From contig NZ_CP064923.1 in NCBI RefSeq assembly GCF_018336915.1, positions 5,340,001 through 5,372,000 of the forward strand: 32,000 bases of DNA, in the 5' to 3' direction. The notes under the pieces are model-generated. The model was not told the origin of the DNA, did not search any database, and worked only from the letters and a program-made list of their open reading frames with translations. Origin of the DNA: Acaryochloris marina S15. Lineage in GTDB: Bacteria > Cyanobacteriota > Cyanobacteriia > Thermosynechococcales > Thermosynechococcaceae. Of this stretch, positions 5,390 through 29,021 are shown in pieces; the first letter of the stretch is position 1; each line of letters opens with the position of its first letter. The position numbers and the translations under genes are program-made.

Positions 5390-6190
5390 ATGTCAACGGC
5401 TAACTACATTTTTACTGAGACTCAATATGCTCAGGAACTAGAGCGGCTCCAAGCCATTGAAAAAATCTTTGATCCAACTAGCCGTCAACGACTGGAGTCG
5501 ACAGGCATAACGACGAACTGGAGATGTTTGGAAGTTGGGGCAGGAGCGGGGTCAATCACGCAATGGATGGCGGGCGCAGTTGGAGAAAGTGGCCAGGTGG
5601 TTGCGGTTGATCTAGATACCCGATTTGTCGCTAATCTTGAATCCAGTAATGTTGAGGTCTTGGAAGGCGATATCCAGCATCTTCCCCTAGAAAAACATTC
5701 ATTTGATTTGGTCCATGCCCGCTATGTTTTGGTCCATAATCTCGATGCTCATGCAGTGCTATCGAGGTTGTTGGATTTAGTAAAACCGGGTGGATGGATT
5801 GTTTTAGAGGAACCTGACTTTGCGGCTGCGAGGGCCATTGCAGGTGAAGCCTCTGCTTGTCAGTCTGTGAATAATGTGAACCAGGCGATTGAGAAGATGT
5901 TTACAGCGAGGGGGATGGATTATGGTCTTGGTGCGAAGTTACCTGCTCTATTACAGTCCTATGATTTACAGTCATTTGCTGTAGAGGTGGATACTCACCT
6001 CTCTCCGGGTGGTTCGGGCATCGCGACCATGATGGCAATGTCTACTATACAGTTGGCGGAGAAATATATTGCAACGGGTGCAGTGACTCAGGCAGACATC
6101 GATCATTATGGCCGATTTGCAGAAGATCCAAATGCTTGGGCGATTTACTATGCGACGGTAGGCGTTATTGCTCAGAAACTGCAGGCATAG
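5390..6190 (+). CDS. class I SAM-dependent methyltransferase
   Basis: 266 aa. Motif I is LEVGAGAGSITQWM, the acidic loop is VVAVDLD, and motif post-II/III is LVKPGGWIVLEEP. A GGAGGA Shine-Dalgarno sequence sits 4 nt upstream of the ATG. Confidence 0.8.
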   Translation: MSTANYIFTETQYAQELERLQAIEKIFDPTSRQRLESTGITTNWRCLEVGAGAGSITQWMAGAVGESGQVVAVDLDTRFVANLESSNVEVLEGDIQHLPLEKHSFDLVHARYVLVHNLDAHAVLSRLLDLVKPGGWIVLEEPDFAAARAIAGEASACQSVNNVNQAIEKMFTARGMDYGLGAKLPALLQSYDLQSFAVEVDTHLSPGGSGIATMMAMSTIQLAEKYIATGAVTQADIDHYGRFAEDPNAWAIYYATVGVIAQKLQA

Positions 6191-6966
6191 TGAAAACGAC
6201 TTGGATTGTACAATCCAACATTCCTAAATCTGATTCTGTATCGCTTTTGCAAGATGCTTGCGAACAATTGGAGCAGCCTTTCTATCCAGTGATGGTTCAA
6301 CCAGGGCAGAAGCATCTACCAGAGCTGTCTGAGGTTGATCCACCCCTTGTCTTTCACGGTGTCACGACGCTGATTCTCCGAGCAAGGGAAGATGCTCAAT
6401 GTCACAAAGGTGTCTTCTACGACCCTCAGAATTTTACTCATGCTGCCTACACAAAAGGCTTTGGTAATGCCTACCTCAATTACGATGCTCAGGTGCTTGA
6501 CTGGTCATCATTGTTGAAAATGGCGACTGCTACGTCTGCTGCGTTCTTTATCAAACCTCCTGATGATCTCAAGGCATTTACTGGCTGCGTTGCTCGCTAT
6601 GAAGACATTCGACACATGCATCAAAAACTTTTAGATGCACCTCACCACCAGTCAGAAAATGTTGTGGTTGGACAGTGGTATGAAGTGGACGCAGAATGGC
6701 GACTTTTTGTTGTAAATGGTGAGGTGGTTACAGGATCGATGTATCGCCCTACTGCAGAAGCCTTTCTACCTCAAGAGCTTGTAGATTTTGCAGCTCAGTG
6801 TATTGCACGCTGGACCCCGGCTGATGTCTTTGTCCTGGATATTGGGCGGGTTGATCGGCAGTGGCGCATTATTGAATGCAACTGTTTTAACTGGAGTCGA
6901 TTTTACTTATCTGATGTCACAAGGCTTGTAGATAGAGTTTCAAGATTTCAAGAAGACAATTGGTAG
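6190..6966 (+). CDS. ATP-grasp domain protein (DUF4343/R2K-like), substrate unknown
   Basis: The C-terminal ATP-grasp core is present: EWRLFVVNGEVVTGSMYRP ... VFVLDIGRVDRQWRIIECNCFNWSRFY, a metal-binding E-x-N type motif. The likely start is GTG at 6190, overlapping the methyltransferase TAG by 1 nt (TAGTG). The track ATG at 6136 would overlap the upstream gene by 55 nt. Confidence 0.6.
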   Translation: MKTTWIVQSNIPKSDSVSLLQDACEQLEQPFYPVMVQPGQKHLPELSEVDPPLVFHGVTTLILRAREDAQCHKGVFYDPQNFTHAAYTKGFGNAYLNYDAQVLDWSSLLKMATATSAAFFIKPPDDLKAFTGCVARYEDIRHMHQKLLDAPHHQSENVVVGQWYEVDAEWRLFVVNGEVVTGSMYRPTAEAFLPQELVDFAAQCIARWTPADVFVLDIGRVDRQWRIIECNCFNWSRFYLSDVTRLVDRVSRFQEDNW

Positions 6967-7008: not shown

Positions 7009-8094
7009 TTATGATTTACCTTTCAGTAAAAGGCTACTGAAGTAGAGAAGTAAGGCAAGACAGAGAAATCCAAGGCGAAGATCGATGGGATAAGGAATTT
7101 GATCTAAGGCGGCAGGGAATAAGGTTTTGCCTAGATAGGCAGCATAGAACATATAGCCTAAGGCCACATGGCCGCAACGCTCTTGCAGGAGAGCAAATAT
7201 GGTTGCAAATGTAGGGCCATAGAGAACTGCAGCAACTGGAAACAGAAAGCCGAAACTAGAGAAAAATGTGAGTGAAATGGTTACTAAACCCGCCAAAAAT
7301 AATATCTGTAACCGTTGCACTGGACGAGGACCAACCCAAACCCCTAATGTTAAGCGGCCTAGAGTTAAACCACCCCAGTAAGCAGAGAGCAAAGCACTTT
7401 GCCAGCCCTTACTCCACCCGATACTACTGAGGTAAGAGCCACTCCAAGTGCCAATCGAGCTTTCCAAGCCGACATAAAGCAAAATCACCAGCAGAAAAGG
7501 CCAAGCGATGCTCCACTGAACTCGATCTTGGCGAGGTTGAAAATTTTGAACGGAGGGTGCTTGCCATGCCAGAGCACTTGCCAGAATAGCACCTATGGCT
7601 ACTAAGCCAAATGCCCAGCGCCAGGGCAATACTGCACTAATTAATGGGGCACTGAGGGCACCGACGCCAAAAGTAGCATTGGCCCAATTTAAGACGGTGA
7701 TTTTACGGCGAGGGTGTAACTCTCCGACCAAGTTATTGCAGTGGAAGTTGAGAATGCCGTCCCCCCAACCTAGGAGAAGGGCAGCACCACCAATCCACCC
7801 AAATCCAGGGGCACAAGCTGCTGCGATAAAGGCGATCCCAATGGCAGCAAAGGCTAAAGTGAACACCGGATGGCGATATTTTTGCCGAGAGACCCAGATT
7901 AACCCCCCTAAGCTGCTGATCAAAAAGAGGGTGTAAAACAGACCGATATTGACGCCTGCGCCAAAGGTGTCGGTCCACTGCTGAAGAAAGGCACCGGGCA
8001 TAGCGACCACAATGCCATGGAGATATAGGCCGATAAATCCAGCTGCTGTTAAGCGACCTCGGGGGTGGGTTGGGGGAGGGCTGGATTCGGTCAA
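7009..8094 (-). CDS. multi-pass membrane transporter, MFS-like
   Basis: 361 aa, made almost entirely of hydrophobic helix-length segments separated by short loops (about 10-12 by eye). The TTG start overlaps the upstream gene's stop (TTGA), suggesting translational coupling. Confidence 0.55.
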   Translation of the reverse strand: MTESSPPPTHPRGRLTAAGFIGLYLHGIVVAMPGAFLQQWTDTFGAGVNIGLFYTLFLISSLGGLIWVSRQKYRHPVFTLAFAAIGIAFIAAACAPGFGWIGGAALLLGWGDGILNFHCNNLVGELHPRRKITVLNWANATFGVGALSAPLISAVLPWRWAFGLVAIGAILASALAWQAPSVQNFQPRQDRVQWSIAWPFLLVILLYVGLESSIGTWSGSYLSSIGWSKGWQSALLSAYWGGLTLGRLTLGVWVGPRPVQRLQILFLAGLVTISLTFFSSFGFLFPVAAVLYGPTFATIFALLQERCGHVALGYMFYAAYLGKTLFPAALDQIPYPIDLRLGFLCLALLLYFSSLLLKGKS

Positions 8095-14492: not shown

Positions 14493-14600
14493 TCAAGACA
14501 CAAACTGATTAACGCAGAACAGGAGACAGCCGTTGCAAGTGGCAGGTTGAGGAATAGTATCTGCTGCAGACACAATGCGATCGCTCTATTGTTTATCTCC
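14493..14600 (-). pseudogene. relic of the 3' end of a ChrR-type cupin anti-sigma factor gene, paralogous to 18046-18150
   Basis: The minus strand translates to ...GDKQ*SDRIVSAADTIPQPATCNGCLLFCVNQFVS*. The C-terminus of the intact gene at 18046 reads ...YQRGDRIISAADTIHQPSTRNGCLLFCMASMDNQFVS*. There is an in-frame stop and no upstream coding continuation. DNA similarity is visible, e.g. AGGAGACAGCCGTTGC in both. Confidence 0.7.
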
Positions 14601-18045: not shown

Positions 18046-18654
18046 TTATGAGACAAACTGATTGTCCATGGATGCCATGCAAAAGAGGAGACAGCCGTTG
18101 CGGGTAGAAGGCTGATGGATAGTATCGGCGGCAGAAATAATCCGATCACCCCGTTGATACACTTGTTCATCCACCACTAGATCACCAGCCAAAACTAAGA
18201 TTTCTTCTCCGGCTGCGTGATGATGTTTAGGAAATAGTCCCTCTTGGTCAGACTTCACAAAGAAAGCTAGTTCACGATGGAGGGTGTTGGCTTGGTACAC
18301 CGCATGCTTAAACTTACCCGGACCCTTTAGATCCTGCCATTCCACTTGGGTGGATAACTCAATGAGTTCATCAATCGGTGTAGACATGAGCTGGTAAAGC
18401 TCAGATGCTTTGAGCGTTGTGGCGTCAATGCGCTGGAACAGCCGATCTTTGAGATTGGGTGACATGGGTATGGCTGGAACGCTGTATGGGATCGCAGATA
18501 CCGCATCTTCAAACCCGGCAATTTCAGGTGCGAGTTCCTCGGCTGAATATTTTGCCACTGGCTGCTGTTCCGCATCATCCAGGGCACCCATTGCCGACAA
18601 GGCCGCCCAGTTAGAAAGCTCTTCAGAATTGGATTGTGGGGCTGGGTGATTCAT
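18046..18654 (-). CDS. soluble anti-sigma factor, ChrR-like: RskA-type N-terminal sigma-binding region plus C-terminal cupin
   Basis: 202 aa. The N-terminus reads LSNWAALSAMGALDDAE...SPNLKDRLFQRI and has no HxxxCxxC zinc motif and no TM segment. Cupin motif 1 is intact: HHHAAGEEILVLAG, i.e. HxH-x3-E-x6-G. The gene lies downstream of an ECF sigma gene. Confidence 0.7.
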   Translation of the reverse strand: MNHPAPQSNSEELSNWAALSAMGALDDAEQQPVAKYSAEELAPEIAGFEDAVSAIPYSVPAIPMSPNLKDRLFQRIDATTLKASELYQLMSTPIDELIELSTQVEWQDLKGPGKFKHAVYQANTLHRELAFFVKSDQEGLFPKHHHAAGEEILVLAGDLVVDEQVYQRGDRIISAADTIHQPSTRNGCLLFCMASMDNQFVS

Positions 18655-19584: not shown

Positions 19585-20838
19585 ATGCTATTGAACCCTC
19601 GTCAAAATCAGGCAAAAACCCGCCGTTTCTCGGCTAAATCCTTGTTAAAGCTCAGTGGCGTTGTTTTAGGGATGGGCCTGACCTTGGGCAGTTTTGCGCC
19701 CGTTACCTTGGCTTCGGATCATGATGATGGTGAAACTAACACTAAAAGCCGCAATCTGAATCTGACTGACTTGTATGTGTTCCGGGAAGGCGATCAAAAT
19801 CCCAACGCCTCCACCGATGATTTGGTTTTGATTATGAATACCAACCCCCGCTCAGTGGCGCGGCAGCAATACTATTTCAATAACAAGGCCCGCTACGAAT
19901 TCCATATTGCTCGTACAACCGATAACGACGCTACCCCCACGGGCAAGCCGGATGTGACTCTGCGGTTTGAATTTAGTAAACCCAAGCCCAATCAAACTCA
20001 GACCATCAAAATCACCACGATTCGAGATGGCAGTTCCCATGTAGGCAAGGCGGTGACCACCCCCCTAAATAGCAAACCCCACACGGCCCAAGTCCCCATG
20101 GGTGATCAAAACTTCTCCGTTTTTGCGGGACTACGAGAAGATCCTTTCTTCTTTGATGTGGAGCAGTTTTTCCGGGTCCGGGCTGGCGCATTAGGCAAAG
20201 GTCCTACGGTGGGCTTCCGGGACCCTGACAAGGCTGTGGACTTTACCACCGGGTATAACGTAAATGCGATCGCAGTTCGTATCCCCATCAAATTCCTTCA
20301 AAACAAGTCTGCCAACACCACCTTTGACGTTTGGCAAACCATCTCTGTTCGAGGCAAAGGCGGCAAATATCGGCAGGTGGAACGCTTGGCTCGTCCAGCA
20401 GTAAACGAAGGGCTGATTGTTTCCAATGCTTTCCTCAATGCTCTCAATAGTGTCGGTCCTGACTTTGAGGCGGCTGCCCTAGCCGGACAAAAGCCTGCTG
20501 CGAAAGTTGCAGGTCCTATCGTCAGTGAAGCCGCTCAAACTCTAAAAGCCATTGGCAACGATGACCAGCGTACTACCACCTTGCTCCAAGCCTTCTTGCC
20601 CGACGTGATGCGGATTGATACCACGGATGCCAGTGGTTATGGCAATGCTCTGAATAGTAAAGGCAGTCCTATTCGTGGTCGCTTACTCAAAGACGACGTG
20701 ATAGATATCACCCTGAGTGTTTTGACCAACGGGGCCATCACCACGGATAACGTTTCCTACGACGGCACCCCTGGCAATCCCTCCCAAGGCCACAGTCCCC
20801 TCCAAACCCAGTTTCCTTACCTAGCTCTTCCCAACTAA
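19585..20838 (+). CDS. secreted DUF4331-family protein
   Basis: AGGAGA Shine-Dalgarno 5 nt upstream of ATG 19585. The signal peptide reads ...VVLGMGLTLGSFAPVTLA|SDHDDGE. The mature N-terminus SDH.D...(N)..LTDLYVF followed by YEFHI is the pattern I associate with DUF4331. The track start at 19357 adds 76 non-signal residues and overlaps the sigma gene's 5' end on the opposite strand. Confidence 0.6.
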   Translation: MLLNPRQNQAKTRRFSAKSLLKLSGVVLGMGLTLGSFAPVTLASDHDDGETNTKSRNLNLTDLYVFREGDQNPNASTDDLVLIMNTNPRSVARQQYYFNNKARYEFHIARTTDNDATPTGKPDVTLRFEFSKPKPNQTQTIKITTIRDGSSHVGKAVTTPLNSKPHTAQVPMGDQNFSVFAGLREDPFFFDVEQFFRVRAGALGKGPTVGFRDPDKAVDFTTGYNVNAIAVRIPIKFLQNKSANTTFDVWQTISVRGKGGKYRQVERLARPAVNEGLIVSNAFLNALNSVGPDFEAAALAGQKPAAKVAGPIVSEAAQTLKAIGNDDQRTTTLLQAFLPDVMRIDTTDASGYGNALNSKGSPIRGRLLKDDVIDITLSVLTNGAITTDNVSYDGTPGNPSQGHSPLQTQFPYLALPN

Positions 20839-20857
20839 GTCTTCCTAGAGCCGCTTG

Positions 20858-20910
20858 CTTTCATCCTTTGCGGATCTCTCGGCCCTCGCTCGCAAGGGAT
20901 GAAAGTTTTA
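20858..20910 (+). terminator. intrinsic terminator/attenuator-like hairpin between the DUF4331 and TPR genes
   Basis: CTTTCATCCTTTGCG (20858-20872) pairs with CGCAAGGGATGAAAG (20891-20905), giving a 15-bp stem with one mismatch and an 18-nt loop. TTTTA follows. Confidence 0.5.
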
Positions 20911-20933
20911 CTTGTCCACCATGAGGTTTTGCA

Positions 20934-22259
20934 ATGATTTTGAATATCTGGAAATGGTCCCGTACCTCCTTTCTCTCAGGAGTTACGTTGACCCTAGTTC
21001 TGGGGATGAGCGTTGATCAGCCCGCCCAAGCAGGTGAATCCCATACCCATACCGCCGAGCATTCGGTAACGGATGCCCTTCGTCGCGAGATTGCCTTTTA
21101 CCAAAATCGGATTCAAGCCAATCCCAAAGATGGATTGGACCGTGCCGCTCTTGCTACCCTTTACCTGCAGCTAGCGACCTCCACTGGTAACACCCACTGG
21201 TATCACGAAGCAGAAGAAACAGCGCTTCAGTCTTTGGCTAACTTACCCTTCAATAACCTCGAAGCCCAGCTTGCTCTCGCAAAAGTGGCCCAAGCTGAGC
21301 ATCAGTTTGCGGAAGCTCTACAGTTCGCCGAGGCAGTCCTGCAGGAAAATCCCAATCATCAGCAAGCCCTCTCAATTATCGTTACCAGCAAGTTGGCCCA
21401 AGGACAGCTTCCTCAAGCGCGACAAGTCGCCGATCAACTGGTGGAGCAAGCCCCGACTTTGGTCAGCTATACCCTCCGGGCTTTGGTGCTAGTCGCTCAA
21501 GGTCAAGATCAAGCAGCTCTCCAAGATTTTCAACAGGCCTTGGCGTTGGAACAACCTGATCAACCGTCTCAAGCCGCCTGGACCCGCACATTACTAGGTC
21601 GCTATCATGCCCATCGAGGTCAACTGCCAGTGGCGAAACAGTACTATCAAGAGGCCTTACATCTGCAACCCCATTCTTCCTTTGCCCAGGTCAAACTAGC
21701 AGAACTAGAAACCCGCCAAGGCAATTATGGTGCTGCAAAAACCCTCTACAAGCACTTACTCCAGCATCCAGAAGCTTCTCATGGACAAGACCATGTGGCT
21801 CTGCAGGGACTCGCCCAACTGCGAGTTTTAGAAGGGAAATTAGCTGAAGCCAATCAACTCTGGGCCGAAGCAGAACATGAGTTTCGCGATCATCAGGATC
21901 TGGATCATTTTGGTCATCGTCGGGATTTGGCGAAGCTACTGTTGGCGAGAGGTCGTCAAGCCGATTTGCAGGAAGCACTGACCCTGATGCAGACGGAAGT
22001 CAACATTCGCCGCGATTCTGAGACCTTGAAAACTTTGGCCTGGGCGTTGTCGCGGTTGGAACGGTATGGTGAGGCCCGGAGCGTATTGCAAGATGCGATC
22101 GCATTAGGCACACAAGATGCCAGCCTGTTCTATCGAGCCAGTTTAGTAGAAGCTGTCCTAGGCAATAAGGCTCAAGCTGATGTCTATGCTCAAAAAGCGT
22201 TAGCGATAGACCCCAATTTTAATACCCGAGCGAGAGCTTTATTGGCTTTGGGCGGGTAG
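20934..22259 (+). CDS. secreted TPR-repeat protein with His-rich segments
   Basis: 441 aa. Signal peptide ...LVLGMSVDQPAQA|GESHTHTAEHS. Multiple TPR units are present, e.g. AEALQFAEAVLQENPNHQQAL. A His/Asp-rich stretch reads EHEFRDHQDLDHFGHRRD. Confidence 0.7.
   Translation: MILNIWKWSRTSFLSGVTLTLVLGMSVDQPAQAGESHTHTAEHSVTDALRREIAFYQNRIQANPKDGLDRAALATLYLQLATSTGNTHWYHEAEETALQSLANLPFNNLEAQLALAKVAQAEHQFAEALQFAEAVLQENPNHQQALSIIVTSKLAQGQLPQARQVADQLVEQAPTLVSYTLRALVLVAQGQDQAALQDFQQALALEQPDQPSQAAWTRTLLGRYHAHRGQLPVAKQYYQEALHLQPHSSFAQVKLAELETRQGNYGAAKTLYKHLLQHPEASHGQDHVALQGLAQLRVLEGKLAEANQLWAEAEHEFRDHQDLDHFGHRRDLAKLLLARGRQADLQEALTLMQTEVNIRRDSETLKTLAWALSRLERYGEARSVLQDAIALGTQDASLFYRASLVEAVLGNKAQADVYAQKALAIDPNFNTRARALLALGG
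22095..22259 (+). repeat. direct repeat copy 1: the 3' end of the intact TPR gene, starting at HIP1 GCGATCGC
   Basis: These 165 bp align without gaps to 23063-23227, with about 21 mismatches by hand count. Both copies start with GCGATCGC and end at a stop codon. Confidence 0.9.
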
Positions 22260-22320
22260 TTTTTAGAAGCCGAAGGGTTGGAGTCTGTAATGGGGCATGG
22301 CACAAAACTATAGACCACCA

Positions 22321-22349
22321 TTGACAGTATATTCTCGATATGAGAATAT
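22321..22349 (+). promoter_or_regulatory. candidate higBA promoter with overlapping operator palindrome
   Basis: TTGACA (22321-22326) is followed 17 nt later by GAATAT. The inverted repeat ATATTCTC-gatat-GAGAATAT (22329-22349) spans the spacer and -10 region, as is typical for autoregulated TA operators. Confidence 0.45.
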
Positions 22350-22380
22350 GGTGCTATTGGTCTAGTTTGATGTTATCTCT

Positions 22381-22680
22381 GTGCATGTTATTAGTCGCAA
22401 AATTCTTCGAGACTTTTGTCAAAAGCATGCTGATTCTTGTGAAGCGCTATTTGCTTGGTACAGGGTTGCAACCAAGGCCCACTGGCAAAGCCTACCTCAA
22501 ATCCAAGCTAGTTACCCCAAAGCAGAAGCAGTCGGTAATTTCACCGTTTTCAATATTAAGGGCAATACTTATCGTTTAATTGTGGATATCAACTACGTTA
22601 AGCAGCGAATCTACATCAAATATATTCTGACTCACGCTGATTACGATAAAGACCTCTGGAAAAATGACCTTTACTTTTAA
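22381..22680 (+). CDS. higB: type II toxin HigB (RelE-fold mRNA interferase)
   Basis: 99 aa with a GTG start. MHVISRKILRDFCQKH...AWYRVATKAHWQSLPQIQASYPKAEAVGN..VFNIKGNTYRLIVDINY...IYIKYILTHADYD matches the HigB_toxin family pattern. Confidence 0.85.
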   Translation: MHVISRKILRDFCQKHADSCEALFAWYRVATKAHWQSLPQIQASYPKAEAVGNFTVFNIKGNTYRLIVDINYVKQRIYIKYILTHADYDKDLWKNDLYF

Positions 22681-23062
22681 TGCGGATACCTATAGTCAGT
22701 TGTTGGCGGAGTATCGTCCCAAGGTCATTGCTTCTGAGCAGGAAAACGAAGCTGCGATCTCACTTGCACAAGAGTTAGAACATCTCCCAAATCAAACCCC
22801 GGAGCAGGAAGCGCTTCTTGATCTACTGGTGATGCTGATTGAAAAGTATGAAGATACTGCTTATCCGATTCCTGTCAGTACCCCCCGTGAAGTATTGCTG
22901 CACTTAATGGAGGCTAAGGGATGTATTCAAGAAGATTTGGTGGGTGTTATTGGATCGCGAGGGGTTGTTTCTGAAGTGGTGAATGGTAAGCGAGGTATTA
23001 GTATCGCTCAAGCTAAATCTTTGGCTGATTACTTTGGCGTTGATGCAGGACTTTTTATCTAA
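22664..23062 (+). CDS. higA: type II antitoxin HigA (HTH-XRE)
   Basis: 132 aa, overlapping higB by 17 nt. The C-terminal HTH reads LVGVIGSRGVVSEVVNGKRGISIAQAKSLADYFGV. Confidence 0.8.
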   Translation: MTFTFNADTYSQLLAEYRPKVIASEQENEAAISLAQELEHLPNQTPEQEALLDLLVMLIEKYEDTAYPIPVSTPREVLLHLMEAKGCIQEDLVGVIGSRGVVSEVVNGKRGISIAQAKSLADYFGVDAGLFI

Positions 23063-23227
23063 GCGATCGCACTCGGCACTCAAGATGCCAGTCTGTTTTA
23101 TCGAGCCAGTTTAGTAGAAGCGGCCCTAGGCAATCAGCCTCAAGCCGATGTCTATACTCAAAAGGCATTAGCGATAGACCCCAATTTCGATACCCGAGCA
23201 AGATCCTTATTGGCTTTGGGAGGATAA
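23063..23227 (+). pseudogene. displaced duplicate of the TPR gene 3' end (last 54 codons plus stop), with no 5' part
   Basis: It starts at a HIP1 site immediately after the higA TAA. It encodes AIALGTQDASLFYRASLVEAALGNQPQADVYTQKALAIDPNFDTRARSLLALGG*. The intact gene ends with ...AIALGTQDASLFYRASLVEAVLGNKAQADVYAQKALAIDPNFNTRARALLALGG*. Confidence 0.85.
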
Positions 23228-23332
23228 GGTGATTTCTAGATCTAGATGAATGGCGATCAAGGTCTGGGAAAGTATGACAATGGAGACAGTGAAAATCTGC
23301 TTCAGAAAATAGTCACAACCTATCGACAACAA

Positions 23333-24487
23333 CTACTTTTTATCCAAACGACCTATACGGTTAAATGGGAAAAATCTTTTAGTCGCTTGGCCAATAATTT
23401 CACTTCGTTTAACCAGCCCCCAGCATCGACTATCGAGACTCAGGTCTCGGTGGTCTCCTAATACCAAATAGTGATCGGGAGGAATCGTTTGCGGTTGGGA
23501 TAAATAGATGGGAATAGGTGGATCAATGGGCCTGCTTTCTACGTCCATCGTTACATAATTGGAACGACAAGTTTCGGGGCTTGGACTCTCTGTCGTTCCC
23601 GACATTGTGTAAGGCTCTTGCAAGGGTTGATTATTAAGCCAGACAACATTCTGTTTAATCTCAACTACATCACCTGAGATGCCAATAATCCGCTTTACAA
23701 AAGCATTCTCAAAGCCACCTTGTTTTAATGCCTGAGTGGGTTTAAACAGAATAATATCTCTTCGTTTTGGAGTTTGAAAGAGATAACTCACTTTATCTAC
23801 AACGATACGATCATTAATCTTTAGAGTTGGCTCCATTCCGCCAGATGAAATATACCGAGCTTCGACAATCAATGAACGAATAGCGAGGGCGAATATGACA
23901 GATAGGGCGATCGGGGCAATAATCAGCAGTAGAAATAATTTTAATATGATATTTTTGCTGCTTTTACGTTGATCTGAGGCAGCTTGATAAGCATGGTTAG
24001 CGACAAAGGGTAACACAAACCACAGCCCCAAGAAGACGAACCCCGGAGCATAAATCCAAGTTAGGATTTCAGCCACAATTAGAATCGAGCCCAGAATCCA
24101 TTTCCCCATGTAAAGATGGCCAGCGCCTAATACAAAACGGCTTAGGAACACGGCAAGCCAAGGATCTTTGAGCGTTTTTCGATGATTTTCAAATGCTGAA
24201 TCGTTGTTACGAATCGCAGCTCGATAGGCACTGATCCAACTTCCAAACCCCAATAATAGGAATAGGGCTATTGCACCAAAACCGATCAGCCCAGTCTCTT
24301 GGGCCGTAATGACTGAGAAAAGGGACAGCACAAATAGGGCTAAGTACGTAACAATGATGCCCCACCCTTGTAAGGGTTTGCCAGCATAAAGATGTCCTAA
24401 TCCCGGTAAAATCATCGACCAATTGACTGCGAGCCAAGGCTCTTTGGAGGATGGCTTACCGCTAGTCTCTGGTTCTTTATCAAGCAT
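23333..24487 (-). CDS. signal peptidase I (S26) homolog with a ~200-aa multi-TM N-terminal extension and Gly at the nucleophile-Ser position
   Basis: S26 boxes: ISSGGMEPTL (box B, canonical SxSM.PTL), RRDIILFKP, FVKRIIGISGDVV (Lys box), and LVLGDHRDLSLDSRCWGLV. ATG at 24487 is preceded by GGAGGA. The track start at 24499 is a TTG. Confidence 0.7.
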   Translation of the reverse strand: MLDKEPETSGKPSSKEPWLAVNWSMILPGLGHLYAGKPLQGWGIIVTYLALFVLSLFSVITAQETGLIGFGAIALFLLLGFGSWISAYRAAIRNNDSAFENHRKTLKDPWLAVFLSRFVLGAGHLYMGKWILGSILIVAEILTWIYAPGFVFLGLWFVLPFVANHAYQAASDQRKSSKNIILKLFLLLIIAPIALSVIFALAIRSLIVEARYISSGGMEPTLKINDRIVVDKVSYLFQTPKRRDIILFKPTQALKQGGFENAFVKRIIGISGDVVEIKQNVVWLNNQPLQEPYTMSGTTESPSPETCRSNYVTMDVESRPIDPPIPIYLSQPQTIPPDHYLVLGDHRDLSLDSRCWGLVKRSEIIGQATKRFFPFNRIGRLDKK

Positions 24488-24705
24488 GTTCTCCTCCAAA
24501 TACTGGCTAACTTAGGTCAAAGTATAAGATTCATGGGCATGCTTTCGAATGAAGAAATTGTGCAGTTAGATAAGGGGTATCCGTTATTGAACACCATCTA
24601 GGAAGTGAGTCTGCTGGAGCAGATGTTTCTGAGTGGGATGTGAAGTTTGCAGGCAGATTATCAGATTCAATATGCCATTGTTATTCGTAAACGCAAAAAT
24701 GGGCA

Positions 24706-25236
24706 TCAGTCTGAGGGCAATAGCTGACCATCTTCCATCTGGAGAATACGATCGGCCATATCGAGAATACGGTTGTCGTGAGTCACCAACATGACCGTAC
24801 ACCCTTCTTCTTGAGCCAGTTTTCGCATAATTTCCACTGCATCCCGACCTGTTTTGCTATCGAGGGCAGCGGTGGGTTCATCGGCGAGGACCAGTTTGGG
24901 GTAGCTGACGAGGGCGCGAGCAATGGCGACTCTTTGTTTCTGGCCCCCGGATAGATTGGCCGGATAGTAATTGATATGTTCTCCTAAGCCGACGGATTCC
25001 AGGATTGCGATGGTTTCCAACCGGCCTGTGGCCATCGCACGCTCCTGACGTTCCTCCACCGACAGATGAGTATGCAGCTTCAGAGACATACGCACATTCT
25101 CTTGAGCCGTCAGACAGTCCAGCAAATTATGGGATTGGAAGATAAAGCCAATCTGCTGACGGAGCTTGACCAGCTTTTTCTTGGGGCACCCAGGAGTTCT
25201 TGGCCCAGGAATTTGAGGCTGCCTTCCTGTTGCGAT
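24706..25236 (-). pseudogene. truncated, frameshifted duplicate of the devA 3' two-thirds (no Walker A)
   Basis: It aligns to 25903-26410 with roughly 90% identity by eye. It differs by a 24-nt insertion (25011-25034) and a 1-nt deletion in the T-run near 25178-25190. Homology stops at 25236, at the position of HIP1 26406-26413 in the intact gene. Confidence 0.85.
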
Positions 25237-25370
25237 TCGGTGCATCGGAGCGGCCGTCGACAAGGGAGGCGAAGTTAGTAGTCGTTCGTTGTCACTTGGT
25301 GGACTTATTCGTCAGGCTTTGTGAAAGCTGCACTTGTTACTATAGGCATAGTGATTGAGTGGCTACAGCC

Positions 25371-25577
25371 ATGATTTTTGATATCAAAATTGAGCAAGAA
25401 GAAGATGGGCGTTGGATTGCAGAGATTCCAAGCCTACCTGGAGTAATGCTCTATGGCCAAACCCCAGAGGAAGCAAAAGCTAAAGTAAAGGCTTTGGCAC
25501 TCAGGGTGCTCGCTGAACGTATTGAAAGTGGTGAAACTGAGCCTGAATTGGTCAGTGTTACGTTTAACGCTGCATGA
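25371..25577 (+). CDS. hicB: HicB-family (UPF0150) antitoxin, short form
   Basis: MIFDIKIEQEEDGRWIAEIPSLPGVMLYGQTPEEAKAKVKALALRVL is the HicB N-terminal fold pattern. The stop overlaps the next ATG (ATGA). An alternative GTG start lies at 25359. Confidence 0.75.
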   Translation: MIFDIKIEQEEDGRWIAEIPSLPGVMLYGQTPEEAKAKVKALALRVLAERIESGETEPELVSVTFNAA

Positions 25578-25792
25578 GTCAGTGGGGAAGCACTAAATCC
25601 AAAAGAGTCTTGGCAGCACTACTCAAAATTGGCTAGACCGTTAAACGTCAAACTGGTTCTCACCGTATTCTTTCCCGTGAAGGCTGGCCAGACTTTGTAT
25701 TCGCTTTCCATGATGGAGAAGAAATTGGTCCTCGCATGCTGGCACGGATTTCTAAGAAAACTGGACTTGAGCCTCGTGATATTGAAATTGAT
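25574..25792 (+). pseudogene. hicA: HicA-family toxin gene interrupted by an in-frame amber codon
   Basis: MSQWGSTKSKRVLAALLKIG-TAG-TVKRQTGSHRILSREGWPDFVFAFHDGEEIGPRMLARISKKTGLEPRDIEID. TAG at 25634-25636 occupies the position of the conserved Trp (..GW.....GSH). The same frame stays open afterwards to 25924. Confidence 0.75.
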
Positions 25793-25902
25793 AGACATGA
25801 CGCATCATCTAGCCATAGATGTTTGAGCTATCCTGTCAGTGTTTGCTGCTATAAATCTGAACATCGGCGACTCAGTTTGTCTGAGCTAAAACGCGACAGT
25901 GT

Positions 25903-26583
25903 TCAGTCAGTCGGTAATAGCTGACCATCTTCCATCTGGAGAATCCGATCCGCCATATCTAGAATACGGTTGTCGTGAGTCACCAACATGACCGTACAGC
26001 CTTCTTCTTGAGCCAGCTTTCGCATAATTTCAACGGCATCCCGCCCCGTCTTGCTATCAAGGGCAGCAGTGGGTTCATCGGCGAGGACCAGTTTGGGATA
26101 GCTGACGAGGGCGCGGGCAATGGCGACTCTTTGTTTTTGTCCCCCCGATAGACTTGCGGGATGGTAGTTGACATGTTCTCCTAAACCCACGGATTCGAGG
26201 ATTGCGATCGCACGCCCCTTACGTTCCTCCAACGTCAAATGGGTATGCAGCTTCAAAGACATGCGGACATTCTCTTGAGCCGTTAGACAGTCCAGCAAAT
26301 TATGGGATTGGAAGATAAAACCAATCTGCTGACGGAGCTTGACCAGCTTTTTTTTGGGAGCACCCAGGAGTTCTTGGCCCAGGAATTTGAGGCTGCCTTC
26401 CTGTTGCGATCGCAACGCCCCGATCAGCGTCAAAAGTGTGGTTTTTCCGCTCCCCGATGGTCCCATCAGGATCACAATCTCACCGGGATTTAAATCCAGA
26501 CTAATATCCTTAAGCACAGGCTTCCGCAACTGCCCTTTGCCAAAGGCATGATTCAGATGGCGAATCGAAACAATCGGGTCCAT
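25903..26583 (-). CDS. devA: DevA-family ABC exporter ATP-binding protein
   Basis: 226 aa. Walker A GPSGSGKTT, signature LSGGQKQR, Walker B LVLADEPT. It is the last gene of a devB-devC-devA arrangement. Confidence 0.9.
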   Translation of the reverse strand: MDPIVSIRHLNHAFGKGQLRKPVLKDISLDLNPGEIVILMGPSGSGKTTLLTLIGALRSQQEGSLKFLGQELLGAPKKKLVKLRQQIGFIFQSHNLLDCLTAQENVRMSLKLHTHLTLEERKGRAIAILESVGLGEHVNYHPASLSGGQKQRVAIARALVSYPKLVLADEPTAALDSKTGRDAVEIMRKLAQEEGCTVMLVTHDNRILDMADRILQMEDGQLLPTD

Positions 26584-26586
26584 CGG

Positions 26587-27840
26587 TTAAAACACATCCG
26601 CAGGATCAGCTTGGCGCAGCTTCTGGGTCGCAATCCCCCCCGCCCCCATGCACATAACGATCGTTAAAATAAATACCTGTGCCATCACATCGGGTCGCAA
26701 GCTCAAGGGGATTTTCGTTAGAGAACTCAACAGGCTATACACCCCAATGGATGCCACGCATCCGGGCACAAAGCCCAACACCGCCAAAATCAATGCTTCC
26801 TGCAGAACAACACGCAGCAAAGCATTATCAGCAAACCCCATCGCTTTTAAGGTGGCATACTCGGGCAGATGTTCCAGCACGTCTGAATAGAGCACCTGAT
26901 ACACCACAATTACCCCCACCACAAAGCCCATCATCGCCCCAAAATTAAGGACAATACCACTCGGATCCGCTTCGTAAAAAGCCACTTCCTTCTGGATCAG
27001 TTCCTCACGGGTCAACACCTGGATAGATGACGGTAAAGCTTGTTGGAGTTGCGTTTGTACTTGCAATGGGTCAGCCCCTGCATCTAAACCCACTAACCCT
27101 AAGCTGACGTTATCTAAACTCTCGGGACCGTTTCGGGCTAAGTAGTTTAAGTCACTCATAATGACGTGACCTTTCGTGAATAGGGTGCTTCCCAACGTAA
27201 ACAAGCCTGCTATTTGAGTGCGACGGTTCCCCATTACGGTTGTCAGCTGTGGTTTTTGAGTGATTAAAGCTGGAATAGGTCCCAAGCCATCCTGAGACAG
27301 CCGGTCGTAGAGAATCGTATCGGGTTCTTTTAACTTGTCCAGTTGCTGATTGATTTCAGGCAGGGCAAAGGCAGGTTGAGCAAGGTTGAAGGCCAGAATC
27401 TTGACCCTATCAGGGAAGATTTCTATCTCTTTATTGTCTGACTTGGCTTGGCCTGGGGGAGACAGCAACTCCGGGGGAATAGGATGTTCGACGGGTAGTT
27501 GCTCAGGATTGATCCAGTCCACCCGTCCCATGATGTATAAGGGGTAGGCTGTAGCCACACCTGGAACCGCATTGGCTTGGTAGAGATAAATCTGCGCAAA
27601 GGTCTGAAACCCCAACGCCCGAGAGTAGGAAGACATCAAGAACAGATCGCCCTGGAGATTCTCATGAACCAAAGTAATGCCATCAAACAACACTGCCCGA
27701 ATTCCCAGTTGGGCAAACATCAAAATATTGGCAAAGGCTACCCCCGTCAGGGCGACGGCCAAACGAGCCTTTTTATGGGAAAGCTGTGCCCAAGCCAAGG
27801 GGCGTTCAGCCGTTAAATTTCGGAGTTGTCCCCATTTCAT
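26587..27840 (-). CDS. devC: DevC-family ABC exporter permease (FtsX-like)
   Basis: 417 aa. An N-terminal TM segment, a large periplasmic loop and a C-terminal FtsX-type 3-TM bundle. It is positioned between the devB and devA homologs. Confidence 0.85.
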   Translation of the reverse strand: MKWGQLRNLTAERPLAWAQLSHKKARLAVALTGVAFANILMFAQLGIRAVLFDGITLVHENLQGDLFLMSSYSRALGFQTFAQIYLYQANAVPGVATAYPLYIMGRVDWINPEQLPVEHPIPPELLSPPGQAKSDNKEIEIFPDRVKILAFNLAQPAFALPEINQQLDKLKEPDTILYDRLSQDGLGPIPALITQKPQLTTVMGNRRTQIAGLFTLGSTLFTKGHVIMSDLNYLARNGPESLDNVSLGLVGLDAGADPLQVQTQLQQALPSSIQVLTREELIQKEVAFYEADPSGIVLNFGAMMGFVVGVIVVYQVLYSDVLEHLPEYATLKAMGFADNALLRVVLQEALILAVLGFVPGCVASIGVYSLLSSLTKIPLSLRPDVMAQVFILTIVMCMGAGGIATQKLRQADPADVF

Positions 27841-27851
27841 CTAGTTGTCTC

Positions 27852-29021
27852 CTAGAGGTCAATCGTGACTCTGACTTGCATATTTGTAAGGCCAGCGACA
27901 ATAGGGCTATCGTCCTGATCGATGCGGATGGAAACATTCACGATCCGGGCATTTTCATCCGTGGTTGGATTGTTATTTCCTGTGGACAAGGTGCGAGGGT
28001 CAATCTGGAGACCAACATCATCCACAACCCCCTGAATTTCTCCCTTAAATCCACCATATTCACTGAGAATAGTCGCTCGTTGACCTTTATTAATCTTGGT
28101 AATATCGGTTTCATACACTTCGGCCAGGACATACATTTGCTCTGTTCGGCCTAAATCAACGATGCCAAGCTGGGTATTCACCTGCTCCCCGACTTTGGTA
28201 TTGATCCGGAGAATCTGTCCGGGAATTGGGGCTTGAACTTGGGTGTCGTCGTAATCTGCCCGCCGTTGCTCCACTTCAATTAAGGCCCGTTGTAGTTCGG
28301 CTTGAGCAATGGTGACATCAATCGGACGGATTTGCTGGAGTTCGGCTAACCGGGCCTTTTCTTCTTGGATTTGTGCTTTTAAAGTGGTGACGGTTTGCTC
28401 CAAAGAAGCAATTTGGGCCGCTAGGGTGGCGCGAGTGGTCTCAAATTCTTCGCGAGCGGTGTCTACTTCTGCCCGACTAATGGCCCCCTGTTGATAGAGC
28501 TGTCGTCGACGTTGGTAGGTCAGTGCTGCCTCCCGCAAAGAGGCTTGAGCACTGACAATCTCGGCTTCTTTTTGTTTAATCTCGACAGGAAGTTGAGTTT
28601 TCAGCCGTATTACAACAGCTTGCTGGGCAGCGATGCCACCGGGTTTGGCATCCCCTTGTTTAGCTTTGATGAGACGTGCTTGTGACAGTTTGACGTTAGC
28701 TAGCGCGGCTTTCAAATCCTCTCGCCGCCGATCGGCCCCTTGGAGGGTGGCAATCACTTGATCCTTGCGCACGCGGTCTCCCTCTTTGACCAAAAGCTGA
28801 TTCACTCGACTGTCTTCAGCATTGGAGACCGATACTTTGATCACGCCAAATTCAGGAATAATCTTGCCCCGAGCTACCACTCGGCTGGATTTGACGGTGG
28901 TAGGAGTGGGAGTAGGGGTGGGTTGAGCTTGCAGTAATCCACAGGCACTCATCAAGAATGAGGCTCCTAGGATGACTATCAACTGTTTGCAGTCTCGTCG
29001 CTTTGCTCCTGGGACCGTCAT
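27852..29021 (-). CDS. devB: DevB-family membrane fusion protein (HlyD-like), probable lipoprotein
   Basis: 389 aa. Signal/lipobox-like FLMSAC and a PTPTPTPT linker. It has a biotinyl-lipoyl-like hairpin, a long coiled coil (AQIASLEQTVTTLKAQIQEEKARLAELQ) and a beta-barrel domain. Confidence 0.85.
   Translation of the reverse strand: MTVPGAKRRDCKQLIVILGASFLMSACGLLQAQPTPTPTPTTVKSSRVVARGKIIPEFGVIKVSVSNAEDSRVNQLLVKEGDRVRKDQVIATLQGADRRREDLKAALANVKLSQARLIKAKQGDAKPGGIAAQQAVVIRLKTQLPVEIKQKEAEIVSAQASLREAALTYQRRRQLYQQGAISRAEVDTAREEFETTRATLAAQIASLEQTVTTLKAQIQEEKARLAELQQIRPIDVTIAQAELQRALIEVEQRRADYDDTQVQAPIPGQILRINTKVGEQVNTQLGIVDLGRTEQMYVLAEVYETDITKINKGQRATILSEYGGFKGEIQGVVDDVGLQIDPRTLSTGNNNPTTDENARIVNVSIRIDQDDSPIVAGLTNMQVRVTIDL

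Follow-up and report, generated by a model that had tools for sequence, protein, structure and literature searches.

We analyzed a 32,000-nt stretch of the Acaryochloris marina S15 genome (NZ_CP064923.1, positions 5,340,001 to 5,372,000; hereafter the window, whose own numbering is used for its features) in which two host genes, a TPR-repeat gene and devA, are each followed by a type II toxin-antitoxin (TA) operon and then by a second, displaced copy of the gene's own 3' end. In both loci the duplicated segment starts inside the palindromic octamer HIP1 (GCGATCGC), and this was seen again at an independent locus of strain CCMEE 5410. We tentatively interpret these structures, with a confidence that falls somewhat short of even, as heritable insertion scars of ~1 kb, consisting of a surrogate gene 3' end and a type II TA operon, that would have originated through one-sided homology together with a break in HIP1. 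Each module would sit in its host gene at HIP1, the gene would stay intact by using the module-side 3' end, and the gene's own 3' end would have been pushed downstream, surviving as a remnant.

Protein domains were assigned with Pfam profiles, and repeats with a repeat finder and pairwise alignment. Three module cases were fully mapped (TPR/higBA and devA/hicBA in the window, and the third locus in CCMEE 5410), and both window sites were compared across seven Acaryochloris lineages or strains. Logan contigs of run SRR12447961 match the window at 100% identity. Sister strains SRR12447962, SRR12447963, SRR12447966, SRR17348482 and SRR17348480 are 97.6-98.2% identical to it and have the same structures, and the flanks in the complete chromosome of Acaryochloris sp. 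'Moss Beach' (CP071717) are ~98-99% identical. An assembly labelled A. marina NIES-2412 (hereafter NIES-2412) is ~93% identical and carries both structures; MBIC11017, the IP29b metagenome-assembled genome (MAG) and CCMEE 5410 are more distant. The SRR12447961 Logan contigs end exactly at the diverged repeats, and DevA is split over contigs because the repeat breaks the assembly, which is a warning for annotation in general: diverged repeats of this kind interrupt short-read assemblies precisely at module sites. An assembly artefact was rejected as the source of the structures, which are seen in the complete genomes of MBIC11017 and Moss Beach as well as in several independent assemblies.

Displaced gene ends and HIP1 at their joints

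In the first locus, the TPR-repeat gene (20934..22259, + strand) is intact and encodes 441 aa with matches to Pfam TPR families. Its HIP1 at 22095..22102 is where the duplicated segment has its upstream limit, and the sequence 3' of 22095 is copy 1, the module-side end. The gene is followed by an intact higB toxin gene (22381..22680, + strand, 99 aa; PF09907 HigB_toxin, E=1.9e-30, 105 bits against a cutoff of 27) and by the higA antitoxin gene (22664..23062, + strand, 132 aa), in the toxin-first order and with a 17-nt overlap, as in type II HigBA. The HTH_3 match of HigA (E=1.2e-4) scores 22.5 bits, just under the Pfam cutoff of 23, and NCBI names an identical protein HigA family antitoxin. 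The TAA of higA directly abuts a full HIP1 (23063-23070), which opens the displaced TPR 3' end, TPR' (23063..23227, + strand, 165 bp, an open frame ending in TAA), and which aligns with the HIP1 at 22095-22102. The two copies (22095-22258 and 23063-23226) are 87-88% identical, with 21 differences over the full 165 bp, 14 of them at third codon positions (p=0.002); the ratio of nonsynonymous to synonymous divergence (dN/dS) is 0.14 and dS is 0.42. TPR' lies in the higA frame right after the TAA, also in MBIC11017. A translated extension of HigA was rejected, as TPR' lacks its own start codon and its frame is interrupted in NIES-2412; the shared reading frame is probably incidental.

In the second locus, devA (25903..26583, - strand), encoding the ABC ATPase of a devBCA-type exporter (ABC_tran, E=9.4e-37; devC and devB lie upstream), is likewise intact, and the segment from 26410 down to 25903 forms the module-side 3' part. 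The HIP1 at 26406..26413 is the upstream limit of homology to the displaced copy, devA' (24706..25236, - strand, 531 bp), which continues into native devA-lepB intergenic DNA. In this strain devA' is a pseudogene, frameshifted by a 1-nt deletion near 25186, and it also carries a 24-nt insertion, described below. The copies show 42-43 differences in ~507 aligned columns (~91.5% identity), with 32/42 at third positions (p=1.6e-8), a dN/dS of 0.058 and a dS of 0.36. At the joint with the cargo only a HIP1 half-site is present (25232..25236; GCGAT on the + strand, ATCGC in gene orientation), and it aligns with the HIP1 at 26406-26413.

The cargo of this module begins with a region upstream of hicB (25237..25370, + strand) that is part of the hicBA cassette: its core recurs in conserved form in unrelated contexts, and the homology with other cassettes continues until a few bases before the joint. 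The hicB antitoxin gene (25371..25577, + strand) encodes 68 aa from an ATG; a GTG at 25359 would give 72 aa, and the recorded protein named HicB family antitoxin is exactly the 68-aa form. Its Pfam matches are weak and under the cutoffs (HicB_lk_antitox, 21 bits; UPF0150, 20.8 bits), and it overlaps hicA by 4 nt. The hicA toxin gene (25574..25801, + strand) is a pseudogene with a broken reading frame, having a nonsense TAG at 25634-25636 (TGG in sister strains) and a lost stop, GAA at 25784-25786 (TAA in relatives); it matches PF07927 HicA_toxin (E=2.5e-13) only once the TAG is repaired. An intact hicA is found in Moss Beach, SRR17348480 and NIES-2412, and only the window strain and at least one sister (SRR12447966) carry a dead one; the toxin was therefore inactivated recently, while hicB was kept. 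Between the two modules lies their native neighbour, lepB (23333..24499, - strand; signal peptidase I, Peptidase_S26, E=2.5e-41), whose synteny is preserved in all relatives.

The third instance, in locus L035 of CCMEE 5410, was reached through a hicB paralogue in a TA island, so that HIP1 was no selection criterion. There, an intact gene for a 245-aa protein (7533 down to 6796) is accompanied by a HigB-like/HTH_3 pair (6152-6757) and a displaced 3' copy of 283 nt (5972 down to 5686) that is 89% identical, with a dN/dS of 0.19 and a dS of 0.30. Homology starts at the ATCGC of the HIP1 at 7078-7085, and at the joint GAGTGC is followed directly by ATCGC. In the same island, cobW fragments beside DUF433/PIN and hicBA cassettes also begin at the ATCGC of a HIP1. 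All three modules measure ~1-1.2 kb, and in all three the differences between copies are biased to synonymous sites (dS 0.30-0.42). An initial annotation of the window, made from its sequence, had described the shared layout of intact gene, TA cassette and displaced 3' end, the HIP1 at both upstream homology limits and the mostly synonymous nature of the copy differences; every element was found where it had been placed, and the HIP1 limit recurred at the CCMEE 5410 locus.

HIP1 occurs 12 times in the 32-kb window (1 per 2.7 kb), against 0.28 expected. The probability that both homology limits fall inside the octamer by chance is 1.4e-4 when gene lengths and HIP1 counts are taken as given, and 9e-6 at the window-wide HIP1 density, which bears out the earlier view that the coincidence is improbable. 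The displaced copy started inside HIP1 in each of the three fully mapped cases. Indels between sister strains were surveyed as well and were too few to yield a background rate. Breakpoints also proved stable when relatives were added: the TPR' junction is kept at HIP1 in four sister strains, NIES-2412 and MBIC11017 (there with a duplication of ATC), and the devA' junction at ATCGC in Moss Beach and NIES-2412, being identical in two sister-strain contigs. In the window strain, its sisters, Moss Beach and NIES-2412, this ATCGC follows DNA that is not devA. The devA' joint of NIES-2412 and the third-locus joint of CCMEE 5410 both read GC followed by ATCGC.

Comparison of the hicBA cassette in four contexts showed that on the cargo side of the devA' joint the cassette DNA extends up to the joint itself, and that no HIP1 is present there in the three other contexts. 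HIP1 therefore supplied the recipient end only, retaining exactly GCGAT on the + strand. As judged from these alignments, the devA' joint is better explained by a break at GCGAT^CGC, with non-homologous DNA attached to the broken end, than by the pairing of two HIP1s. In all three instances copy 1 is continuous with the host gene, and the other joint is either a full HIP1 (TPR') or, at devA' and in CCMEE 5410, an ATCGC beyond which homology ends, as expected for a product of homology-facilitated illegitimate recombination (HFIR). The initial annotation had offered two routes, a Campbell-type crossover of a circular cassette or HFIR with HIP1 as the microhomology. These two were not separable, and a HIP1-by-HIP1 joint is argued against at devA' by its non-HIP1 cargo side; a break within HIP1 is stated by neither.

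HIP1 is also the site of a 24-nt mini-element. The HIP1 in devA' is split by it (25007..25038, GCGAT-N22-ATCGC), while a plain HIP1 stands at the corresponding position in devA (26204-26211) and in MBIC11017. The consensus is GGCCGAAGGCCGGTC-NNN-GACC plus AT, giving the form GCGAT-GGCCGAAGGCCGGTC-NNN-GACC-ATCGC, so that it lies between HIP1 nucleotides 3 and 4 (GCG, then AT-N22, then ATCGC). It contains two small hairpins, occurs in either orientation and adds ~8 aa in frame (MATGRLET in devA'). We found it at four independent Acaryochloris sites, namely devA' (one insertion, common to three genomes), the second higA copy of IP29b (locus L001, 6637-6668) and twice in CCMEE 5410 (L035, 1359-1390 and 4489-4520), and within HIP1 in 31 of 120 metagenome contigs among the matches listed (e.g. 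L053, L118 and L141); many scan matches are chance GC-rich sequence. As described in PMC4390886, the element SDR5 inserts between the third and fourth HIP1 nucleotides (Elhai et al. 2008), which is the position that the mini-element occupies; the likeness is by description, not by sequence. SDR-like repeats have not been found outside Nostocaceae according to PMC5861425, and SDR5 was reported to be absent beyond that family, whereas the mini-element occurs in Acaryochloris and in many metagenome contigs.

History of the two modules in Acaryochloris

Orthologues of the TPR gene were identified in MBIC11017, IP29b, CCMEE 5410, NIES-2412 and Moss Beach. NIES-2412 has the full higBA/TPR' structure with an intact HIP1 and a remnant that carries a 1-nt deletion. 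In MBIC11017, higA ends in TAA and is followed by GCGATCATCGC, a HIP1 with the ATC duplication, and by the TPR' remnant, and the DNA 3' of the remnant is orthologous to the window. CCMEE 5410 retains TPR-higBA, with an insertion sequence (IS; a transposase gene) inserted right at the higA stop, and IP29b has kept fragments of higB and higA, has lost the remnant by deletion and has acquired brnTA. Because higBA/TPR' is common to lineages that are ~14% diverged, the event predates those lineages. The hicAB/devA' structure is common to the window lineage and one ~7% diverged (NIES-2412), and in MBIC11017 devA is followed directly by lepB, an empty site at which the orthologous position is not a full HIP1 (GAGATCGC). 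The idea of a recent acquisition was thus overturned for both events. Altogether, the modules are inherited vertically across lineages, their two copies undergo gene conversion, and their TA genes decay or get replaced.

Replacement is seen at the 5' part of higB, which in both MBIC11017 (locus L002, 11744-12262) and IP29b (L001, 11418-11982) was exchanged at the same breakpoint for different cargo: a 172-aa ORF (open reading frame) with no Pfam match in the opposite orientation in the former, and a brnT/brnA pair in the latter. Differing replacement cargo at one breakpoint makes the TPR-lepB spacer a hot spot of cargo turnover. Elsewhere in the IP29b MAG (L001, 6100-7000), a devA 3' fragment of ~120 nt is fused to a second copy of the higB 3' part, a higA pseudogene and the start of TPR', which reflects either a large rearrangement between cassette copies or a misassembly of the MAG; pentapeptide-repeat genes occupy the place where devBCA is expected.

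In Moss Beach, higBA is missing. The TPR gene there passes through HIP1 into a 3' end with 100% identity to the TPR' of the window and continues in native DNA up to lepB, and the difference between the two genomes is exactly the 968 bp between the two HIP1s (22095 and 23063), so that the left end of the indel is the HIP1 within the TPR gene. The displaced copy therefore serves this sister strain as a functional TPR 3' end. Empty sites, which the initial annotation had proposed to look for, thus exist for both modules (devA-lepB in MBIC11017 and TPR-lepB in Moss Beach). The upstream flank of Moss Beach is the closest of all strains to the window (31 differences in 2963 columns), and this strain is nested among cassette-bearing strains; an ancestral empty site was rejected on this ground, and the alignments indicate that the site probably reflects a secondary, precise loss. 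Modules can be lost precisely by recombination between the repeats. For the Moss Beach loss, the crossover would have had to lie in the first block of 9 identical bases, which comprises ~6% of all identical positions, and blocks of 20 and 23 identical bases lie elsewhere in the repeat. This is no independent proof of a crossover at HIP1, because copy 1 might have been gene-converted beforehand, in which case ordinary recombination could have taken place at any point of the repeat.

The initial annotation had read the two copies as alleles from different lineages. This reading held only in part: with gene conversion, mosaic remnants and exchange between lineages, the divergence gave no clean two-allele signal. 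Among the sister strains, TPR copy 1 varies at 0-6 of 165 positions and the remnant at up to 15 of 165, the latter being mosaic, with states shared with the alleles of other lineages; in one sister strain, the 5' end of the TPR' remnant has been converted to the copy-1 type. The devA and devA' copies of three genomes and the devA of MBIC11017 form a star pattern (25-62 differences in 506 columns), with 7 of 21 pairs outside the range 38-55. Conversion tracts between devA and devA' within a genome are apparent as 2 differences in the first 100 columns in the window and 0 over 100 columns in Moss Beach. Changes unique to devA' fall at third codon positions in 13/18 cases, showing that much of the devA' sequence was shaped while it belonged to a functional gene, most plausibly through exchange with functional alleles, given that devA' sits in the native devA-lepB context. 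Overall, the divergence between copies (8-13%) is no greater than that between lineages carrying the structure.

Further observations concern exchange and decay at these sites. The higBA cassette (22234-22934) is 100% identical in the window strain and SRR12447962 within flanks that are 93-97% identical, which suggests recent exchange or a cassette sweep between strains. In Moss Beach, devA is broken by an IS256-family (Transposase_mut) element with an 8-bp target duplication (L019, 6410-7648; corresponding to ~26346-26353 of the window), and devA' has no frameshift there, yet is without the 5' part of the gene. The window also holds a direct repeat of 78 nt (77% identity) at 14514-14591 and 18079-18156, 3.6 kb apart, which falls within or close to a TetR-family gene and a Cupin_7 gene; it has HIP1 in one copy and is present in Moss Beach too.

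Origin of the modules and competing explanations

The sequence of events that we tentatively favor starts with donor DNA from a diverged Acaryochloris lineage in which the same gene was followed by a TA cassette. After uptake, this DNA would have recombined through host-gene homology on one side, and its TA-distal, non-homologous end would have been joined illegitimately at a break in the recipient HIP1 (GCGAT^CGC, equivalent to GCG^ATCGC on the other strand). Such an event, HFIR-like or a form of break repair, would duplicate the segment from HIP1 to the stop codon. Once present, modules may have spread between lineages by ordinary homologous recombination in the flanks, as their distribution and the mosaic patterns suggest. 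Their persistence may be due to the TA cargo, which would resist deletion by addiction and so fits the dead or truncated toxins in some lineages, and to the repeat divergence of ~10%, which would suppress RecA-mediated deletion. Being poor RecA substrates may also explain why dS is similar (0.30-0.42) in the three instances.

Several observations weigh against this origin by one-sided homology. The complete HIP1 at the TPR' joint is just as compatible with a HIP1-by-HIP1 joint or with a circular intermediate. A donor with the pre-insertion order (gene, TA, unrelated DNA) was not found among the relatives examined, and no HIP1-cutting enzyme was identified. Sliding-window identity did not locate the left edge of the import, since the TPR gene is fast-evolving and its identity between lineages neither drops nor rises at HIP1. 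The events are old, and the copies are blurred by gene conversion. The synonymous bias fits import, but gene conversion and exchange between lineages confound this signal. A counter-example was encountered in a metagenome contig (L088, 653-949 versus 5838-6065), where a cobW remnant, next to a zur-like gene, is separated from the intact gene by 5 kb: its boundary is located in a repeat of His codons, the nearest HIP1 is ~65 bp away, and the cargo is not TA, comprising Uma2-like, DNA-alkylation-repair, SelO-like and GNAT genes. The hicBA of A. thomasi and the higBA paralogue of IP29b have neither a host-gene repeat nor a HIP1 joint. The module layout as a universal trait of these cassette families was accordingly rejected. 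Another, unrelated metagenome contig (JAAUXY010047844.1; L041, 898-2135) repeats the module layout: mazE/mazF lies between two 83%-identical 3' ends of a membrane-protein gene, with the repeat boundary beyond the contig end; one of these copies has the 24-nt element in a HIP1 just upstream.

A Campbell-type event differs in that a HIP1-to-HIP1 fragment, comprising the gene 3' part and the TA genes, would have been excised or circularised at HIP1 in the donor and entered by a single crossover in the 165-530 bp arm, with loss as the reverse reaction. The perfect HIP1 at the TPR' joint, directly after the higA stop, is as expected for a circle closed at HIP1, the 968-bp indel relative to Moss Beach is exactly one HIP1-to-HIP1 unit, the ~1-1.2 kb of all three modules is a typical HIP1 spacing, and there is a report of excision promoted by HIP1 (Robinson et al. 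1997, as cited in PMC4390886 and PMC5861425). We consider this route unlikely, however, as the devA' joint fuses a HIP1 half-site to non-HIP1 cassette DNA with no HIP1 closure, and the hybrid copies expected from a crossover in the arm are not seen in the window, where, starting at the first informative base, copy 1 is of W1 type and copy 2 of Moss Beach type. In addition, natural transformation delivers linear single strands, not circles, and no circle was observed. Dedicated machinery acting in trans, a nuclease or recombinase specific for HIP1 that cuts GCGAT^CGC and moves the modules and the 24-nt elements by cut-and-paste, with HIP1 as the att core and the surrogate 3' end keeping the target intact, would account for the same scar (GC followed by ATCGC) at two independent joints (devA' of NIES-2412 and CCMEE 5410), for the exact retention of GCGAT at the devA' joint of the window, for the mini-element at one HIP1 position (four Acaryochloris sites and 31/120 metagenome contigs among the matches listed) and for the HIP1-bounded loss in Moss Beach; directed cutting at HIP1 was raised by Elhai 2015 (PMC4390886). 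It appears distinctly improbable to us, given that none of the modules has a recombinase or nuclease gene within it or next to it, that an 8-bp site with thousands of occurrences per genome cannot alone single out the orthologous gene, and that the loss in Moss Beach is also explicable by ordinary recombination after gene conversion. HIP1 excision at a similar frequency in E. coli, going by the title of Robinson 1997, also speaks against a cyanobacterium-specific enzyme. The broader proposal, that HIP1 is the cleavage and crossover site of a putative HIP1-directed activity in cyanobacteria which breaks DNA at GCGAT^CGC and mediates both gain and precise loss of ~1-kb modules as well as spread of the 24-nt element, the modules being a class of integrase-free integrative cassettes that bring a replacement 3' end and so leave the target gene intact, is in our estimation similarly improbable.

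The layout itself, with an element-derived end, cargo, a displaced native end and mostly synonymous differences, matches integrase-mediated integration into the 3' part of a coding sequence, and the cargo turnover at the TPR site (the 172-aa ORF in MBIC11017 and brnTA in IP29b) is that of a hot spot. The modules could accordingly be decayed integrase islands from which all but the TA genes were deleted, with the HIP1 at the boundary incidental or produced by HIP1-HIP1 trimming. At the TPR site, the same core is found at both ends (HIP1 at 22095 and 23063) together with the precise absence of 968 bp, and at devA' only a half-site is present. Neither site holds an integrase or a larger island in the seven Acaryochloris lineages or strains, and three host genes would each need an att core coinciding with HIP1, which makes this explanation very unlikely in our view. 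No integrase gene was found near the modules in the sampled loci, where only TA genes lie between the repeats; the mobile-element genes encountered there were the IS256-family transposase in Moss Beach devA and the IS transposase after higA in CCMEE 5410. A purely in-situ history, with tandem duplication of the 3' end between short repeats such as HIP1, a later, separate insertion of the TA genes at the junction and divergence in place, draws on two facts: copy divergence (8-13%) does not exceed that between lineages with the structure, so that time in place could suffice, and HIP1 is by far the commonest octamer, so that the match could simply reflect abundance. Nevertheless, it would require two events at the same nucleotide, three times over, would have to produce synonymous-biased differences in non-functional copies, and would leave HIP1 at the joint, whereas the cassette side of devA' is non-HIP1. 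Moreover, the seven lineages or strains include no duplication without cargo, a pattern that the initial annotation had named as decisive against insertion. We give an in-situ history little credence.

Two further classes were rejected. A diversity-generating retroelement does not fit the substitution pattern, in which A accounts for only 19-29% of the mismatches in either copy and transitions and transversions are mixed; no reverse transcriptase domain turned up among the genes listed for ~20 kb (Moss Beach) and 16 kb (NIES-2412) of surrounding DNA. An integron cassette was rejected as well, as the region 20000-28000 has no attC-like inverted repeat, only two weak pairs of 20-23 nt unrelated to the cassette ends, and no integrase.

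Relation to known systems and significance

Prophage e14 and phage 21 integrate at E. coli icd with a surrogate 3' end and leave a displaced icd fragment. The modules resemble them in having an element-derived, synonymously diverged 3' end, cargo in the middle and the displaced native end as a direct repeat, and in that precise loss restores the native end (Moss Beach). They differ in having no integrase, no phage or island genes and no att core beyond the generic HIP1, and in being ~1 kb long with a TA pair as their only cargo. HFIR has reportedly been described in Acinetobacter baylyi, Streptococcus pneumoniae and Pseudomonas stutzeri, in work by de Vries and Wackernagel from 2002 and in related studies. 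Shared with it are one-sided homology, an opposite end at a short GC-rich sequence, the absence of an element-encoded recombinase and small cargo. In contrast to HFIR, which usually yields a deletion, the illegitimate joint of the modules lies upstream within the anchor gene and produces a duplication; in addition, the joint is at one hyper-abundant palindrome in all three mapped cases, with no donor-side microhomology in at least one.

HIP1 itself has been tied to rearrangements before. A HIP1-associated deletion at the smt locus was reportedly found by Gupta and colleagues in 1993, and like such deletions, the loss of higBA in Moss Beach has HIP1 at its borders, between two of these sites. 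Excision and plasmid recombination at HIP1 are attributed to Robinson et al. 1997 and Akiyama et al. 1998 where these are cited in PMC4390886 and PMC5861425, and HIP1 has been linked to site-specific recombination, excision and a directed cutting that could explain SDR5 insertion (PMC4390886). HIP1 in homology arms raises the efficiency of natural transformation and integration and may act in a Chi-like manner (bioRxiv 10.1101/2024.09.10.611283); the modules resemble this effect in that HIP1 would stimulate recombination of incoming DNA. Unlike these earlier reports, which concern deletions and engineered constructs, the joints described here would be natural insertion joints of horizontally acquired TA genes, accompanied by duplication of a host gene end. 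The components, namely TA cassettes, surrogate ends at integration sites, HFIR and HIP1-bordered deletions, are known. Their combination into integrase-free modules of ~1 kb with a surrogate gene end and a fixed position in HIP1, in several genes and strains, was not found reported in the literature searched and is new to us.

HIP1 is a hyper-abundant cyanobacterial motif that has been without an explanation for about 30 years. Recent laboratory studies suggest that it promotes the uptake and recombination of DNA. The loci described here would be natural footprints of such a role, with horizontally acquired cargo attached to the chromosome at one defined position of the octamer, in three independent host genes and at least two strains. 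The model makes concrete predictions that are testable in transformable model strains. If general, it would explain how small selfish cassettes such as TA pairs enter cyanobacterial chromosomes without a recombinase of their own and why TA genes lie beside intact genes accompanied by pseudogene echoes of the gene end, and it would indicate where to seek a HIP1-cutting activity.

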